DNA from: Hydrolagus colliei
Lineage: Eukaryota
Assembly (NCBI GenBank): GCA_035084275.1
Contig: CM068742.1
Span: forward strand, 101,742,001-101,806,000
DNA: 64,000 nt
Reading direction: 5' to 3'
Position numbers and translations under genes: made by a program. Under the pieces are notes generated by a model. That model worked only from the letters and a program-made list of their open reading frames with translations. It ran no database searches and was not told the origin of the DNA. Position 1 is the first letter of the stretch; each line of letters starts with the position of its first letter. Positions 12,511 to 40,958 of the stretch are shown piece after piece.

Positions 12511-13459
12511 ATTTTATACTTCCTGGTCTTCTTTCATTGATTCCCAGTTAATTGTTTATTTATTCTTAAAAAGAGTTATCCAACAAGATGGATGTCAAAG
12601 ATCCCATGGCACTATTCAAAAATAGAAGATACTTTCTCCTGTTTTCCTGGCCGAGAATCCACAAGATAAAATCAGTCATTCATAGACATTGTTGCTGTGT
12701 GCAAATTGTTAATTATATTTGCCTACAAAATACAACAATAACAAATTTACATTTGTATATTACCTTTCACATCAGAAAGATGTCACAAGGTGTTGGGACA
12801 TCAATACAGTCACTACACTTAACAGCAAAATCTTGTGAAATACTTTGAAACATTTTGATGTCTGATAAAAGTACTGTAACAAATTAAAGATTAATATTAT
12901 ATTGTAACAACAGGAAGCCAGCTAATTTGGATTGCAATTGGAGAGGGAGGATGGGTCTTGTTCTAGATAAACAACAACAACAATAAAATTACACTTGGGA
13001 GTGCCCTAACCCTAGGAGGCTCTTTACCCATACCGCAGGATGGGAGATGCTGCTGGCAGTGAAGAAGAGGACCAAGAAAGCCGAACACCTCTATATAGGT
13101 CCAGAGAGAACTGGCCTATTAGAATTCACATTGAGTACTGGGAGCCTGAGCTGGAAGCACAGAGGGCTCGAGGTTTAAAGGGTTTTGACATCCCAGAGTT
13201 GCTGGGCTATGAGAACCATAACCTCTGAATAATATCTGGCTGCACGCTCTGTCTGACTGAACCGGTTCATGTTACAATATGTTTCTTCAAATCTGTTCAA
13301 AATGAATGCTGTTATCCAAATTCAATTGTTATGATGCTATTAAAATGGAATTTCAATGTTATTTTATAACTGAAGCAAGTAGTTCATGATGTTTTCATTA
13401 TACTGAAGTTTAGAAGATAGGGCGATGCCAAGTGTAACTGGATCAGAAAAAATATTTGC

Positions 13460-14486
13460 AGTGAGCAGTGGTGTGCCACAGGGATCGGTTTTGGGACCAT
13501 TGCTCTTTGTAATCTACATCAATGATCTGGACTTGGGTGTAGGGAGTACAGTTTCCAAGTTTGCAGATGACACTAAGTTAGGGAGAATAGTAAATAGTGA
13601 GGAGGATAGTAGCCATCTGCAAGAGGATATAGACAAATTGGTAAAGTGGGCAGACACATGGCAGATGAAGTTTAATGCAGAGAAGTGTGAGGTGATGCAT
13701 TTTGAGAGAAGAAATGAAGGGAGGCAATATAGGCTAGATAGTACAATTTTAAATGGTGTGAAGGAACAGAGAGACCTGGGGATTTGTGTTAGTGACTCGT
13801 TGAAGGTGGCAGGACAGGTAGACAAGGCTGTTAAGAAGGCATATGGGATACTAGGCTTTATAAATAGGGGTATAGAATACAAAAGTCAGGAAGTGCTGAC
13901 TAACCTCTATAGGACTTTGGTGAGGCCTCAGCTGGAATACTGTGTTCAATTCTGGTCACCACACTACAGAAAGGATGTGAAGACATTGGAAAGGGTACAA
14001 AGAAGATTTACGAGGATGGTGCCAGGATTGAGGGACTTCAGCTATGAGGAGAGGCTAGATAGGCTAGGGTTATTCTCTCTGGAGCAGAGAAGATTGAGGG
14101 GAGACCTAATAGAGGTTTATAAGATCATGAGGGGTTTCGACAGGGCAAATAGAGAAAAACTATTTCCACTCGTGGGCGAATCTGTGACTCGTGGTCACAG
14201 ATTTAAAATAGTTTCAAGGCGAAGTAGAGGGGAGCTGAGGAGAAATGTTTTCACTCAGCGAGTTGTTCGAATCTGGAATGCATTGCCTGAAAAGGTGGTG
14301 GAGGCTGATTCGATAACAACTTTTAAAAGGGAATTAGATCTTTATTTAGGGAGAACAGGTCTATTAGGCTATGGGGAGCAGGCAGGGCAGTGGGATTGAA
14401 TCGTTCTTTTCAAAGAGCCGGCACAGACTAGATGGGCCGAATGGCCTCCTTTTGTGCCGTAAAATTCTTTGAATCTATAATCTATA
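13460..14486 (+). mobile_element. CR1 LINE, 5'-truncated, uninterrupted C-terminal ORF2 (reverse transcriptase) plus 3' UTR
   Basis: ORF 13425-14399 carries SGVPQGSVLGPLLF, KFADDTKL and LVRPQLEYCVQFW. 3' UTR gatgggccgaatggcctcct ends in a short (aatctat)n-like tail. Confidence 0.95.
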
Positions 14487-14632
14487 TCAAGTATGAATAT
14501 GGATACACAGAAATAAGATCATTTTCATTGCACGGTTATCGATGATCAAGAGAAGTGAAACATAACAATGTCTTTTTTTTTAAATGTTGCATAAGTATTT
14601 TAAATTAACTGCGCTAAAGTTAAAGTGCAATA

Positions 14633-23405: not shown

Positions 23406-23540
23406 CTGAGGCTCTCTGTCAATTTTGCTGGGGTCACGTTCATAGCATTCTGCATAGATCCTGATGGTGGATCCCGTGCTCCTGGTTCCACTCTGCCGAA
23501 AGATGAGTCTGGAGCCATCCGTGAGGATCATCCGCAGCCC
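23406..23540 (-). CDS. pgm5: Phosphoglucomutase 5, exon 10 equivalent (135 bp)
   Basis: Translates [45 protein letters not shown] (domain-4 phosphate-binding loop). Acceptor ctcttcctgcag, donor gtaaca. Confidence 0.96.
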
Positions 23541-23769
23541 CTGCAGGAAGAGAATAGGCAACAATTCTGTCACAAATCACCATAACTTGAAAAAGAAATA
23601 GCAAGGATAAAAATAATAATCCTTGCATTTGATATAGGACCTTATGGCATTTTGCCCACAAAATAAACTCAATTCAAATTACTTTATATTCTGTGAAGTG
23701 CTTTGAGAGGTAATCAAATGCTACATCAAATCCAAGAATTATTAATATCGTGTCATTGAAACATATCAA

Positions 23770-27000: not shown

Positions 27001-28894
27001 ATGCTATATGATATGGGTGAATTTTGGGTATTTTGTGGATGGAAATTAATATAAAATGTAGATGGAAATAAGATAATGTTTGAAACTGAGGATATAAGCT
27101 ATATATAGAGATCATACAATATTCTTGTGTGATGATGTACATGTACACATCCCAACAGGGGAAAATCTACATTAACTATAATGTTGAAGTGAATTAATGT
27201 GATCAGCACATAGAGCATCACCAATTTACAGCACACCCACATTTTCTGAGTCTCCTTCACTGCTTAAATCTTTTGAAATAGCACATGTGATAATAAATTA
27301 TTTACGAGTATACAGGATCAAAGTGCTATTGGAAAAGAGAAGGGTGTTCCTCCCAATCCCCTGGAAAACAAGTTAAATTGGTCACTCACTTATTTGTGGG
27401 ACACTGCTGTAACCCAATTGGAAGCAAAGTTTGCCTGGATAAAAAATACATCATCACTAAACTTTACAATAACCTCTCAACACAGATGCTATTTCAAATA
27501 TGGGATTATTATTGTAACCTTATTGCTGACATTATATGATATTTCCTTGCTTTGTATATTTGGGTATAATAATCAATTATTTCAAATGAGATAGTTTAAT
27601 AAAGAAACAGTGTGTCATCTCCTTTGGATGACCTGAAATACATTATACCTGAAATACATTTTGCAGATCCATGAGAAAGTACATTTGAGGCAGTTTCACC
27701 AATCTCAGCTTTCCTCACATCCCCCACTTCAACCACCCCACAATTTGTGGCCAAGCTTTCAGCCTATCAGTCTCCACTCTCTGGAACTCCATCCCTTAGT
27801 CCCTCCAACACACTCCCTCTCTAGGATCTTTTAATGTCTGTCTCAAGACCTTGCTCTTGCCCCTTCCCACCCCATTTAGTTCCCACTTCCAGCTTAGGTA
27901 CCAACCCTTGACTGTTAAACACCTTCCCAACAATGTCCTAAGGTGTTTACCAGTTCTGACTAAGGTACTTGCTAGTTCTGACTTGCTATGAAAAATGTAA
28001 ATTGCATTGTCATTTATAAATAATTCCTGTGAGAAATTGTTGCGTAATAGATCCCATAACATCTGCTTGAAATTTATATCAAACAAAATTTTAACATTTC
28101 CTTTTTTCCCCTTCCTTCTAGAATAATGAATGCTTCTTCGGTTCATTCTGGCAGTGCTGAATAGCCACCGCATCCCACATAGTCTTCCAAGACTCATAAA
28201 AGCTTAAATAATACAGCAATCAGGCACCAGTAAAGAGCTTGTGAGTCTTGGGGTCCCTCAGGCCTCCTCATTTGTGGATTTGCTTCAGTACATCATTATA
28301 AAGCAGCTTTTCAACACTGTTACCAGGGATTGGCTTTATTTATAGGATTGCATTATCAGCTTCACATTTTGTGAACTTAACAGCTGTAATACTATTTAAC
28401 CTAACAGGCAAGGCCTTCCTTAAACTGTGAAAAAGAGGACAAAACTCTGTGTAAAGTTACTGCCCCAAAGTTTTTCTTGTTATATGTTGTGAGGCCGCTG
28501 ACAGGCATGAAAAGCTCCGTGTTTTTTGCGGTTAGTCGAATCTGGCACGCATGTGTTAAATCAACACCATGTTTAATAACCCACAAACAAAATTACTGAG
28601 TTACACAACATACATGGAAATTCCACTGTGTCTGGAATGGAATGTATGCTCTCTTCCCAGGTGAATGCTTATCTAATCCCAGAGAGTATTAGCTACAGAA
28701 CTAAGGCTTGGTAACTCCAGAGTTTCCATTGGGACAACTGCTGGAGTCCAACCAGCTAAAACTATACAGCTTGCCATTGCTTGATGGTATCAGTCGGCAA
28801 CACTGAACAAATGTCCTGCAAAATTCAGCCTTCAAAACCATTGGTTTTCCATTTGTTTGATAAAGAGGCAATTGGGAGTAGTTTAACCTCTGAC

Positions 28895-29078
28895 CTGGTT
28901 TCTGTACACGATGCCGTCCACGGGGTCAGTGTATTCAAAATTATCTGTCTTCTCCACGGTGAAGTTGTGATTGCCAACAGCAAACTGCTGACTGGCGAAG
29001 GACCGGTCCGTGATGACAGCCTCAAGATCCCTCATCAAGTTGTGTGCGACCCGGGAATCCACTTCCTCATAATCAAAC
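28895..29078 (-). CDS. pgm5: Phosphoglucomutase 5, exon 9 equivalent (184 bp)
   Basis: Translates (R)FDYEEVDSRVAHNLMRDLEAVITDRSFASQQFAVGNHNFTVEKTDNFEYTDPVDGIVYRNQ. The CRFDYE, MRDLEA and QQFAVG motifs are PGM5-type. Acceptor ttatgtag, donor gtcaga. Confidence 0.95.
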
Positions 29079-29080
29079 CT

Positions 29081-30005
29081 ACATAAGAATATAAGAACAT
29101 AGGAAATACTAGAGAGAAAAAGACCAAGGTCCATTAAGTTCCCCTTCCACCTCCTGGAGGTCGAATACACATATGACCCAAACTACATATGTACTCTACC
29201 CCATAATGTTATTTCCTAAAAGAAAACGGTCTCATCTGTGTTTGAAAGATTGAATACTTCCTGCTTCAACCATCTCCCTGGTTCACTATTCACTCAATGA
29301 AATAGTGTTTGTGTAGATTTGTTCTGATTGTTGAAGACAACAATCATGTCACCTCTAAATCCTCTCTTTCCCAGCGTGAACATGCCCAATTTACTTAGTC
29401 ATTCCTCATAGTTCAGTCCCTCCATTCCCTCAATCATTTTGGTTGCCCACCGCTGTGTCTTTTTGACTTCTCCAACATCATTTATATACCACAGCAACCA
29501 AAACTGTGCACATTACTCACCAAAGTGTGGTCTCACCAATCGTTTTACAATAAATGTATAAATGGCAAAATTATACCACTAATTCGACTTACTAGTTTCC
29601 TTACTCCACACACCTAATAATCCTCAAAAAATAAAACAATAATAAATTGGTCATTTCAATCCACAACTGTTGGTGGGACACTCTGTGCACAATTGGCTGC
29701 TACATTTCGCCCACAAATATACAGCCAATTCACCTTACAGTATATTCTGTGAAGCGCTTTGAGACGTCTAGAAGTTGTGAAAAGTGCTATATCAAATGGA
29801 AGGATTATTATTATTACTACTGATCTGTTGATACGTCCCAACATCTGGTTTGCTTTACTCACTGCCACAGAGCATTTTTGGGTGAGGTTCAATTATTGTC
29901 AATCAAGACCCCCCCAGGTCCTTTTCATTTTCCAGACATATTATTTTCTTTCCGTTCATATAATAATTTAATCCCTACAAGATTTTTTTATCCCTATGTG
30001 AAATA
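29081..30005 (-). mobile_element. Old CR1 3' fragment abutting pgm5 exon 9, interrupted by a SINE (about 29590-29818)
   Basis: Degenerate translation LVRPHF...AQFW...TQRWATKMIEGMEGLNYEE...RGDMI. The (TTCTTATG)n-type tail ends 2 nt before the exon. Confidence 0.85.
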
Positions 30006-30349
30006 TAGGACCTTGGGAAGTCCTCATAACATGAAATGCATTATACAAATGTAATTTTGTTGTTGTTTACATTTATCCACATCCACATAAATACTAGTTG
30101 TTGTAGATCCTATTAAGTTTTTTGAGATATCTGTTTGATGTGATAGGCTCTATATCAAATGCAGGGATTATTATTATTATTATTATATTAACAGACAAGA
30201 AAATGACACAATTGAGGTGTTTGTGAGCATCTTCTAATGGTGTGTTAGAGAACACTATTGGTGGAGGGATGGCTTTTTCTCTGATAGGCTGAACTTTATG
30301 CTCTGATCAAGCCACCTTTATGGGTTGTGACTTTCGTAGTGTTTCTGTA

Positions 30350-31159: not shown

Positions 31160-31440
31160 GTCAACAAGAGGGTCAAGACAGAGGGATTGAGGAACAATGT
31201 TCCAGAGTTTGGGGCAAAGTGGTTAATACATGACCTCCAATGGTAAGGCGAAGGGTACGAGGGATGAGCAGGAGGCCAATGCCTGTTGAGCTGAGCCACT
31301 GGATGGTGGACTGGAGAGTGAGGAAGTCGGAGAGATAGGGAGGTGCCAGAGAGTGAAGGGATTTGAACATGAGTGAGGATCTTGAAGTCGATCCATTCGA
31401 TGATTGGGGAGCCAGTGGAGCCTGGCCAGAACTTGTGAGA
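31160..31440 (-). mobile_element. Old L2 fragment just downstream of the exon 8 donor
   Basis: HISQVLARLHWLP and FKSLHSLAPPYLSD remnants. Confidence 0.75.
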
Positions 31441-31498
31441 TGTGAGTACGAAGTTTGGTCCGAGTTAGTAAGTGGTCTGTGTTCAATTTCTCTTCTCA

Positions 31499-31654
<156 letters not shown>

Positions 31655-37780: not shown

Positions 37781-39515
37781 ACAACAACAACAAATTACAC
37801 TTATAAAGCGCCTTTCACGTTGGGAGGACGTCCCAAGGTGCTGCACAGGAGGCGTGTGACCCGAGCTGGGAGGGGAGTGTACGGGAAGGGGTGAAACACG
37901 TAGGGGAGGTTGAAAAATTTGGGGGGGAACAAAAGGCACGGTCGAAGAGGAAAGTCTTCAAACCGGCCTTGAAAGAGGAAAGGGAAGAAACGAGACGGAG
38001 GGATTGGGGGATGGAATTCCATAGGGTCGGAGCAGAAAAACTGAAGGCCCGGCCTCCGATGGTGGGGCGGTTCGGGCGGGGGGCTTGGAGCAGGCCAAGT
38101 CCTGCTGAGAGTAAATTGGTTAAATAGGGCGGGGCAAGGTCATGTAAGGCCTTGAAGGTGAGGACGAGGATCTTGAACTCGATCCTCTGGAGGATGGGGA
38201 GCCAGTAGAGATGGGCGAGGGTGGGGGTTATGTGGTCGCGGAGGCGGGTGCGGGATAATACACGGGCTGCAGAGTTTTGGATGACCTGCAGCCTGTGAAT
38301 GGAGGAACTGGGGAGGCCGACGAGGAGAGTTTCTGTAGTCCAGCCTTGAGGTGATGTACGCATGCACGAGTGTTTTGGCAGGGTGGGGGGTAAGATAATT
38401 GCGGAGCCTGGCAATGTTGCGCAGGTGGAAGTAAGCGGTGCCGGTCAAGGCATGGATGTGGGGGAGGAAGGAGAGTTTTTGGTCGAACGTGATGCCGAGG
38501 TTCCTGACTGGCTTTGTGAGGTGGAGAGTACAGCCTTGGATGTTGAGGCTGGCAGCGCCCGATGTGCGGAGGTACTGGCTTGAGCCGATCAGGAGGGCCT
38601 CGGTCTTACTCACGTTCAATTGGAGGAAGTTGTCCCTCGTCCAGGACTCAATATCGGACAGACATGCTGTCAGAACATCGATGGTTTGGGGGTTGAGGGA
38701 TGAGGCAGAAAGGTACAGCTGGGTGTCGTCCGCATACATGTGGAAATTTACCCCATGTTTGCGGATGACATCGCCCAGAGGGAGCGTATAAATGGTGAAA
38801 AGGAGGTGGCCGAGGACAGAGCCCTGAGGGATGCTGTGAGAAACTGTGCGGGGGTTTGAGGAGAAACCGTTGGAAGATACAAAGTGTAAATGGTGGGTCA
38901 GGTAGGAATGGAACCAGTCAAGGACTGTGCCTTGAAGGTTGAGGTGGGAGGAAAGACGTTGGAGGAGGATGGTGTGATCGACTGTGTCGAACGCAGCAGA
39001 CAGGTCAAAGAGGATGAGGAGGCAGAGGGAGCCTTGGTCACAGGCGGTTAGGATATCATTTGTAACCTTAACCAGGGCAGTTTCTGTGCTGTGAACAGGG
39101 CTGAAACCTGATCGGAGGGGTTCAAGGAGTGAGTGAGTTGAAAGGAAAGAGCGGAGCTGGGAGGCAACCACTCTTTCAAGGACCTTGGATAAAAACGGGA
39201 GGTTGGAGATGGGTCGATAGCTTGATGGTTGCGACGCATCAAGGGAGGGTTTCTTCAGGATAGGGGTGATGGTGGCTGTTTTAAGGGAGGTAGGGACGGT
39301 GCCTGAGGAGAGGGAAAGATTGATGGTGTCAGAAATGAGCGGGGCCAAAAGGTGGAGCTGGGTGCGGAGGAGGGGGGTGGGGATGGGGTCCAATGAGCAC
39401 ATGGTGGGTTTCATGGAGGTGATTATTTTAGTGATTGAAGACGGGGAGGTGGGGATGAAAGTATGAAGGGGGTGTTGGGTGAGGGTTGAAATAACGGATG
39501 GAGGGGCGGAGGTGG
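37781..39515 (-). mobile_element. L2 LINE, 5'-truncated, RT domain with one frameshift
   Basis: YRPISNLPFLSKVLE, LFDLSAAFDTVDH, PQGSVLG and YADDTQLY motifs. A 2-nt CT deletion near 38327 shifts the frame (the copy near 62260 has TCTCTCCTC). 3' stem-loop GGGACGTCCTCCCAACGTGAAAGGCGCT followed by (TTG)n. Confidence 0.95.
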
Positions 39516-40958
39516 AGGAGAGGTTTACATTTATATAGCACTTTTCAAATCCAGAGGACATCCAAAGGACAAGGATATACTGTACTGAAAATTGCAACAA
39601 CTGTGTATTTTTCAGGCAAACGTGAGAGAATTTGCACACTGCAATATCCCACAAACAACCATGGAGTGAATGACCAATTCTAACTTGAAGAATCAAGGAA
39701 AGGGGAATGCACGCAGTACTTGTGGATGTATTACAAAATGAGAGTTTAAGCAAATATAGCTTTACAGAAATTGACTGATTAGCTTTACTGAAATTGACAC
39801 TGCACGTCTCATAGCACGTGGACACAATTTTGATGTGAATGTTAAGGCGTATCGACCATACTCAGTCACATACTCAGTTTTATCATCTGCAGATGAAGTT
39901 CTCACTGCTGGTTTCAAAACAAGTGTCCCAATAAATACTGCAATCCATGCAGCCTTTCAGGATGTGCAGTTTATTTATGTTGGTGAGCTGGATGCCTGAA
40001 GTAGTGACCTTGACCAAACCTTAGCCCCTTGTATCACAGCAATTCAACACTCACTAGCACAAGCTGACCTGGTACAAAGCCACATCATGTTTCCCTGCTT
40101 GTTGTCCGTAGTCAAAACAAAATATCGCACTTAAGTTGCTTTATGCACTTAGCCAAGAGTAATTACCGTACATATTCTGTGCAGTGTAATGGTCCATGGT
40201 ACTATTCGAAAAGGGATGGGAGTTTCTCCTGGTGACCAATAATCCCCCAAATAAAATTGCTAAATTTCACACAAGGAAGCTCTCAGGGAGTTCCTCACAG
40301 GGATCTACTGGAACCTGCCATCCACCTAGTGAGGGCTTAAAGCCACATTTGTCAGATGTTAAATGACTAAGTAGTGACTATCTTCCTTGGAGGGAGGTAA
40401 GTAGAGTCTCAATGAACCTGAACTGGCTCCAAAGTGCAATATTTGCCAACTGAATGACAGAATCGAGCCAACCCTCATGGTCAGTCTCAATAGTCTAGTT
40501 CCTCAGCCAGACAGGATGGCAGGACTCCAGGGCACTGCTGACGACAGCACAGCCAGCCTGGCGCATCAGCGGGATTTGGAAGGGAGGGTAGTCACTGGGA
40601 CCAGGGACTCTTTCCAATCGGCTCCCGTTAACCCTGCAAACCAAAACCCCATTGGGACAATCAGTGGGAAAGCTTGCCAGAAAGTGCTCTCAAAGGCAAG
40701 TTTTAGCTGGTTAAACTCCAGCAGCACCCCAACCCACATTCTGAGGTTCCCAAGCCTTAGCGCTTGTCAAACTCTTGCCCAATACTCTCTGGAATTAAGT
40801 AAGCAGAATGTGTACATTAAGTGTGCATTGCATTCCAATAAATATCTTGGGAAATTCCAAGGAATACCACAAGGAATGTGGTATGAAATATGCAGAATTT
40901 CAGTTCCGTGTCCTATCATAAACCATTTAACTGAGTCAAAACTCTCAGGCCCCACATT

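Follow-up and report, generated by a model that had tools for sequence, protein, structure and literature searches.

A CR1-type LINE forms the acceptor region of pgm5 exon 9 in Hydrolagus colliei and carries a candidate second acceptor in frame

In Hydrolagus colliei, the end of pgm5 intron 8 is the 3' end of a retroposon. A 5'-truncated CR1-type LINE in sense orientation stops two bases short of exon 9, at 29081 (-3 of the acceptor), and the acceptor sequence from about -1000 to -3 is all repeat-derived. The LINE contains an AG of its own upstream of the canonical AG, and splicing to it is predicted to add 10 amino acids to the protein. The reading that we favor, tentatively and with slightly less than even confidence, is that of a tolerated LINE insertion with tandem in-frame acceptors, in which the canonical AG is the major site and a real, minor form of PGM5 carries the 10 additional residues. 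All coordinates refer to the window, the whole 64,000-nucleotide (nt) stretch of DNA that was analyzed (assembly GCA_035084275.1, contig CM068742.1, positions 101,742,001 to 101,806,000 of the forward strand).

The gene around the intron was identified as pgm5 by protein search, in which the best matches were to PGM5 of Callorhinchus milii. It comprises 11 exons, mapped in order, and the exon adjoining the LINE is exon 9. All 11 exons are open and are approximately 93 to 98% identical to C. milii PGM5, without being the same, and exon 9 matches both the solved herring PGM5 and PF24947 (HMMER/Pfam). The features that define the exon 8/9 junction are as follows.

31500..31635, minus strand: pgm5 exon 8 (136 nt), with a phase-2 donor, AG/GTGAG, whose last exon base is 31500
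28895..29078, minus strand: pgm5 exon 9 (184 nt), in which the C-terminal domain PF24947 begins
29079..29080, minus strand: canonical AG, at the ancestral exon boundary, which has the same position and phase in pgm1

By comparison with the paralogue, the exon 9 boundary is ancestral and predates the LINE, because pgm1 has an intron at the same position and in the same phase as the exon 8/9 junction; read-through open reading frames (ORFs) of other fishes likewise break ahead of RFDYE. A single contig from run X1 spans 28300 to 29226 with 0 differences from the window sequence, which makes an assembly error unlikely, though X1 may be the source sample itself. Two further features of these genes were encountered along the way. 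Intron 4 of pgm5, outside the window, begins with GC at the end of exon 4 (GAG/GCAAGT), making it a noncanonical GC-AG intron. Roughly 12 kb before the first pgm1 exon match lies a second, more diverged match to the PGM N terminus (47% identity, residues 9 to 133), possibly an alternative first exon of pgm1.

The element itself has the following extent.

29081..30083, minus strand: CR1-type LINE, 5'-truncated, sense to pgm5, comprising the 3' part of ORF2, the 3' untranslated region (UTR), and the tail

When the last 222 nt of intron 8 were used as a genome query, there were 2178 first-look candidates. Among the 39 other copies that were scored (78 to 89% identical), 5 aligned as far as 29081, and none of the 39 covered the final AG (29080-29079). 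Similarity among the aligned copies extends through the pyrimidine run and the internal AG into between one and three TTCTTATG-type units and ends there; in the pgm5 copy, the tail (29105-29081) consists of three such units plus one T. Copies of the family are dispersed and reach 5' to differing lengths, with the pgm5 copy stopping near 30083. A reading made earlier from the sequence only had proposed that a CR1 3' end supplies the acceptor. This proposal is borne out, in that the pyrimidine tract and the branch region both lie inside the LINE and the alignments of those five genomic copies place its 3' boundary at 29081.

A coding remnant at 29539-29330 has 51% identity over 70 amino acids to the ORF2 of a bird LINE (E = 1e-18), and all 120 of the LINE reverse transcriptase (RT) proteins compared, which are mostly from birds and turtles, match it. 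The earlier placement of RT remnants at about 29340 to 29550 was correct in that a coding remnant exists there; the remnant represents the portion of ORF2 that lies behind the RT core. It also matches the window's own RVT_1 element (E = 2e-16), and no ORF2-type match was found between it and the L2-like ORFs of the window. The bird LINEs are presumably CR1 elements, although the matched records carry no CR1 label. Copies of the family end in TTCTTATG-type short tandem units and have no poly(A). On the basis of the ORF2 match, the tandem tail, and the lack of poly(A), we provisionally classify the element as a CR1-type LINE; among CR1-group elements, poly(A) is described as unique to Zenon (PMC13343379). 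Another CR1-type element in the window (13407-14490, plus strand) is represented by a 3' part whose open frame of 330 codons matches RVT_1; its 3' end is unlike that of the intron 8 family, and it looks the younger of the two. The 3' UTR of the intron 8 copy contains one predicted structure that is stronger than in other copies.

29159..29200, minus strand: LINE 3' UTR hairpin, predicted at -15.3 kcal/mol versus -7.1 ± 2.2 kcal/mol in 54 other copies

This hairpin stands out in simulations (P = 0.006 to 0.007), and a sliding-window check, which gave 29 outliers, does not place it among the first 8. It could mask an out-of-frame AG just downstream, at 29155. A conserved 3' stem-loop across copies was rejected (median z of -0.26, with only 2 of 29 copies below -2), as was RNA structure masking either of the two AGs considered below (z of -0.97, not significant).

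The minus-strand AGs at the end of the intron are at 29145, at 29110-29109, and at 29080-29079, the last two being exactly 30 nt apart. The features of the upstream site are as follows.

29133..29139, minus strand: branch-point-like ACTTAAT (A at 29134 or 29135), a derived state of this copy that replaces an AG of the family
29111..29123, minus strand: pyrimidine tract of the upstream acceptor, LINE-derived
29109..29110, minus strand: upstream AG, native to the LINE family and predicted as an alternative acceptor
29079..29108, minus strand: 30-nt in-frame extension encoding SISYVLIFLC, within which 29105-29081 is the LINE tail and also the canonical acceptor's tract

The sequence-only reading had described this arrangement accurately: the second AG (29110-29109) lies exactly 30 nt upstream of the canonical one (29080-29079), no AG intervenes between the CTTAAT motif and 29110 (the next AG upstream being that at 29145), and joining 31500 to 29108 would yield YYC-SISYVLIFLC-RFDYE, in frame and with no stop. 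The spacing of 30 nt would be in frame in 1 case in 3 by chance. The same reading had credited the upstream AG with the stronger pyrimidine tract, and this AG outscores the canonical one on two matrices, a vertebrate one and another derived from this genome's 18 other pgm5 and pgm1 acceptors, both of which are crude, as is the branch matrix. The upstream AG scores 6.1 bits on the vertebrate matrix and 6.2 bits on the genome matrix, against 0.3 and 3.0 bits for the canonical AG; it ranks second of 143 AGs on the vertebrate matrix and, of the top 12 on that matrix, is the best on the genome matrix. The canonical AG nonetheless appears workable, having a TAG/G context and a score (3.0 bits) inside the range of the 18 other pgm5 and pgm1 acceptors (-3.7 to 10.2 bits).

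The best branch candidate of the upstream AG is ACTTAAT at -26, and the same motif is the best candidate at the real exon 8 acceptor. For the canonical AG, the candidates are TTCCTAT at -22 and TTCTTAT at -14. Under the scanning rule, the first AG past the branch point is used unless it lies within approximately 12 to 15 nt of the branch point or a rival AG lies within approximately 12 nt (PMC1431707, PMC9284458), and a downstream AG is reported to be chosen when branch points are too near, or behind, the upstream AG (PMC5378181). With its branch motif and no intervening AG, the upstream AG qualifies as a competent candidate acceptor. A high score need not imply use: the true acceptor of pgm5 exon 2, outside the window, scores lower on both matrices than an out-of-frame AG located at -20, and 1 of the 18 acceptors on one matrix and 2 of the 18 on the other are outscored by an upstream AG, indicating that such an AG can outscore a true one without obvious harm.

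These features suggest how the arrangement could have arisen and how it might operate. The LINE would have landed at the ancestral AG, or a deletion would have joined the two, and the old tract would have been displaced. The T-rich LINE tail would then serve as a moderate tract, with the weak branch candidates at -22 or -14 selecting the canonical AG. Branching at 29134 or 29135 would instead select the upstream AG, because under the scanning rule an AG 30 nt farther on cannot compete, and the choice of branch point would consequently set the ratio of the two forms. That both products are in frame would explain why the insertion was not purged, and later changes may have strengthened the upstream site. 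Some use of the upstream AG is likely, given its higher scores, the ranking of this copy among its relatives (see below), the in-frame spacing, and the first-AG rule. Sequence scores alone favor the upstream AG as the major site; that the canonical AG is probably the major one rests on protein conservation and on the C. milii gene models.

The insertion site is crowded with other repeats.

31160..31460, strand not assigned: fragment of a high-copy repeat, taken to be L2-like and unrelated to the LINE, within the 5' portion of intron 8 (from coverage)
30191..30229, minus strand: AG-free stretch of non-repeat DNA bordering the repeat cluster on its 5' side, a candidate for the branch point and pyrimidine tract used before the insertion
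30103..30190, plus strand: high-copy short repeat fragment, antisense to pgm5, at the LINE 5' junction; candidate SINE or L2 3' end
30011..30067, plus strand: short repeat fragment nested in the LINE, which it interrupts
29594..29816, plus strand: high-copy short repeat nested in the LINE, antisense to pgm5

The segment at 30229-30191 is the 6th of 68 tract-plus-branch peaks in intron 8, ranking behind the tract of the LINE itself (first), three peaks within another repeat, and one next to that repeat. This segment may, as a weak suggestion, be a relic of the displaced old acceptor. No convincing target-site duplication was found: comparison of the 5' flank with the 3' junction gave three 6-letter matches, about as many as expected by chance, and no shared word of at least 7 letters. 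The LINE 5' junction (30097-30085) resembles the element's own tail (29112-29097, minus strand) at 13 matching positions with a 3-base gap (P = 0.011, post hoc), a likeness that could reflect duplication, microhomology, or chance. Repeats are closely packed next to exons throughout pgm5, one example being at about 23540-23620 of the window, and repeat-like (TTG)n or (ATT)n tails were seen by eye approximately 20 to 60 nt upstream of the acceptors of exons 2, 5, 6, and 10. Intron 7 contains a long ORF2 remnant (38143-39861 and 37818-38444, minus strand), the class of which we assume to be L2-like.

The LINE copy is old. Near its 3' end, 21 of 188 sites (11.2%) depart from the family majority, compared with 8.9 ± 1.7% in 28 other copies; for two segments of ORF2, the counts are 35 of 213 and 18 of 171, compared with 15.2% and 12.2% in other copies. 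Its nearest family copy is 11.4% away, and its overall divergence from the family majority is 10 to 16%. As a neutral yardstick, we compared this genome with a C. milii gene model that reads into the 3' UTR (the P0122 read-through); 8 of 62 residues differ, corresponding to approximately 6% pairwise DNA divergence (3 to 10% being compatible), or approximately 3% per lineage, which is a lower bound in that UTRs are possibly constrained. A spurious first exon in P0001 was rejected as a yardstick, as no orthologue of it was found. On these figures, the insertion is probably older than the split from Callorhinchus; the age of the crown group is given as 173 Ma (148 to 214 Ma) (PMC11521621). The sequence-only reading had spoken of a lineage-specific isoform, and because the LINE copy is old, the lineage in question is probably the chimaeras as a whole, or much of that group, and not a single species.

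The principal alternative to a minor +10-amino-acid form is that the LINE tail provides only the tract of the canonical AG and that the upstream AG, as most cryptic intronic AGs do, stays silent as a decoy; we regard this as possible though clearly less probable than the reading above. It draws support from the family, in which the upstream AG and its tract are ordinary features: the A is present in 50 of 55 aligned copies and the G in 51 of 55, and of 54 copies collected with the upstream part of the element, 46 kept the tail (8 were dropped because the tail was lost or unaligned), of which 36 retain this AG. Tolerance of an outscoring upstream AG at pgm5 exon 2 points the same way, as does the protein record. 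After removal of 9 intron read-through ORFs, 2 models lacking exon 8, and 1 lacking the motif from 120 PGM5 matches, the insert was absent in 108 of the 108 informative relatives. It was likewise absent in 6 of 6 C. milii entries, which are gene models, and the C. milii RefSeq entry bears no isoform label although the LINE probably predates that split. Among five candidate read-through ORFs of this intron from relatives, four were matches, none of which, judged by sequence, was from a chimaera and none of which contained the insert; protein searches likewise turned up no shark read-through of this intron. Conservation of the tail is also not above the family level; purifying selection on it was not seen, the last 69 nt differing by 13.0%, compared with 10.9 ± 4.1% in other copies.

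Against a silent decoy, the pgm5 copy has gained a branch-like motif and lost both an intervening AG and a tract purine, changes that all favor the upstream site. The family's CTAGA is CTTAA in the pgm5 copy, two changes that removed one AG and made the branch motif; the T at 29136 occurs in 0 of 28 other copies and the A at 29135 in 4 of 28, and the purine in the tract has become C (seen in 1 of 55 others). A further change, at 29102, is expected to weaken the -22 branch candidate, the best placed one of the canonical AG. When acceptor and branch scores are summed, the pgm5 copy ranks 2nd and 1st, on the two matrices, of 47 tail-retaining copies, and simulations of nine random changes reach its score with P values of 0.023 to 0.028 and 0.007 to 0.010; these tests of directional change were chosen after the changes had been seen (post hoc) and use crude weights.

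The genome was also examined for a recurrent pattern of acceptors behind such tails, which was rejected. Tails followed by YAG number 149, compared with 940 followed by YA[ACT], and the 13.7% share of G represents no enrichment. Among the first 100 of the 149 tail-plus-YAG sites, which provide 94 frames of at least 22 amino acids, only pgm5 exceeded the Pfam cutoff; matches to FYVE (E = 0.027) and DUF5740 (E = 0.043) fell below it and were set aside. Most of these 100 sites come from a different family that shares the tail and is more abundant. In 78 copies of the intron 8 family, 57 of which have a frame of at least 25 amino acids behind the tail, a host domain was found in 0 of 57 and RVT_1 in 1 of 57, this Pfam-based scan being blind to exons with no Pfam domain. 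That one LINE tail should have landed at an acceptor is not unexpected, because the genome holds more than 1000 exact tail matches. The TTCTTATG tail is common to two different CR1-type families. The more abundant of them typically has its nearest AG 44 to 55 nt upstream of the AG abutting the tail, its last 30 nt are pyrimidine-rich, and it could likewise serve as a ready-made tract. The suggestion that the CR1 tail was co-opted as a splice signal holds insofar as the tract and branch region derive from the LINE, but adaptive co-option would go beyond this, in that the 69 nt are no better conserved than in other copies and AG is not enriched behind such tails.

A more far-reaching alternative, which we consider unlikely, is that the upstream AG has taken over and that most PGM5 carries the ten residues, with IFLC replacing NYYC in a strand and the remaining residues of the insert looping out between domains 3 and 4. 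The AlphaFold model of C. milii PGM5, used only for local secondary structure (mean pLDDT of 57.7), places the junction C430/R431 in the middle of a predicted strand at residues 426 to 437 (local pLDDT of 81 to 85), and all 42 sequences compared share G425, R426, and C430 to E435 without variation. The insert, which is strongly hydrophobic (GRAVY of 2.3), would split this nearly invariant predicted beta-strand and would shift the invariant G425-R426 off it. In addition to these structural objections, the junction length is invariant in all 108 informative relatives, and the C. milii models are without the insert. In favor of a takeover are the higher acceptor score, the better branch motif, and the clear run between branch point and AG, together with an alignment (HMMER) of the insert's FLC with YFC of the solved herring PGM5. 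A looped-out form in which the end residues of the insert resemble those they displace is conceivable. Among the insert codons compared, 2 of 3 differences are synonymous, versus 11 of 48 in other copies, a weak signal (P of about 0.13), and the enzymatic inactivity reported for herring PGM5 may relax constraint (PMC7761743). It is more doubtful still that the LINE AG was strengthened by selection, such that chimaerid PGM5 would mostly carry ten residues of LINE tail within a strand that does not otherwise vary among jawed vertebrates, a fixed, constitutive exaptation in which a retrotransposon tail would serve at once as splice signal and as coding sequence.

Finally, a poor LINE-made acceptor that leaves exon 9 often skipped, or a decaying pgm5, is very improbable: although the canonical AG has only 0.3 bits on the vertebrate matrix and new AGs between branch point and acceptor are reported to cause skipping in some cases (PMC9284458), the 11 exons are open and approximately 93 to 98% identical to C. 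milii PGM5, skipping of the 184-nt exon 9 would shift the frame, and the arrangement has persisted through 10 to 16% divergence.

A tolerated insertion with a major canonical and a minor upstream acceptor has partial counterparts in known systems. In canine merle, a SINEC_Cf is inserted at the boundary of PMEL intron 10 and exon 11 (PMC7349775); there, as in pgm5, a retroposon sits directly at an acceptor and its tail serves as the tract, and, as is predicted for pgm5, the original AG faces competition from a cryptic acceptor within the element, use of which exonizes element sequence. The merle SINE, as described in that source, is young, polymorphic, and antisense; its tract is poly(T), its target duplication measures 15 bp, and it has a phenotype. 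The pgm5 LINE, in contrast, is old, apparently fixed, and sense; its tail is a tandem repeat, the extension that it offers is 30 nt long, and there is no clear target duplication. Sela et al. (2007, PMC2394776) report transposable elements (TEs) adjoining exons that offer an alternative 3' splice site and lengthen the exon, as predicted here, and 12 cases of CR1 exonization in annotated human genes. Unlike the cases described there, the pgm5 LINE also replaces the original acceptor signals of a conserved coding exon, and use of its upstream AG is predicted from sequence. Alu insertions within 100 bp of exons occupy a retroposon-depleted zone, and 5 of 23 tested changed splicing (PMC6326789). 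The pgm5 LINE sits in the same exon-near zone, but those Alus are polymorphic human SINEs near alternative exons, and the LINE is at -3 of a constitutive exon. Our search, confined to the open-access literature, yielded no study of this locus and none of CR1 tails acting as acceptors.

Creation of alternative 3' splice sites by TEs is a known process, of which pgm5 is a clear new case with a well-supported anatomy and a plausible +10-amino-acid isoform, and neither outcome at the upstream site would amount to a new mechanism. Introns are normally cleared of retroposons over their last 100 nt, yet at pgm5 a LINE has replaced the whole acceptor region and has long persisted there. The case indicates that the tandem tails of CR1 elements are splice-competent in sense orientation, unlike the usual antisense poly(A) route, and the locus, with two AGs 30 nt apart, is a small natural experiment on how branch points drive the choice between them. 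A silent upstream site would make the locus a good example of a strong decoy acceptor that is ignored; with heavy use of that site, a conserved muscle protein would have gained a LINE-derived insert.
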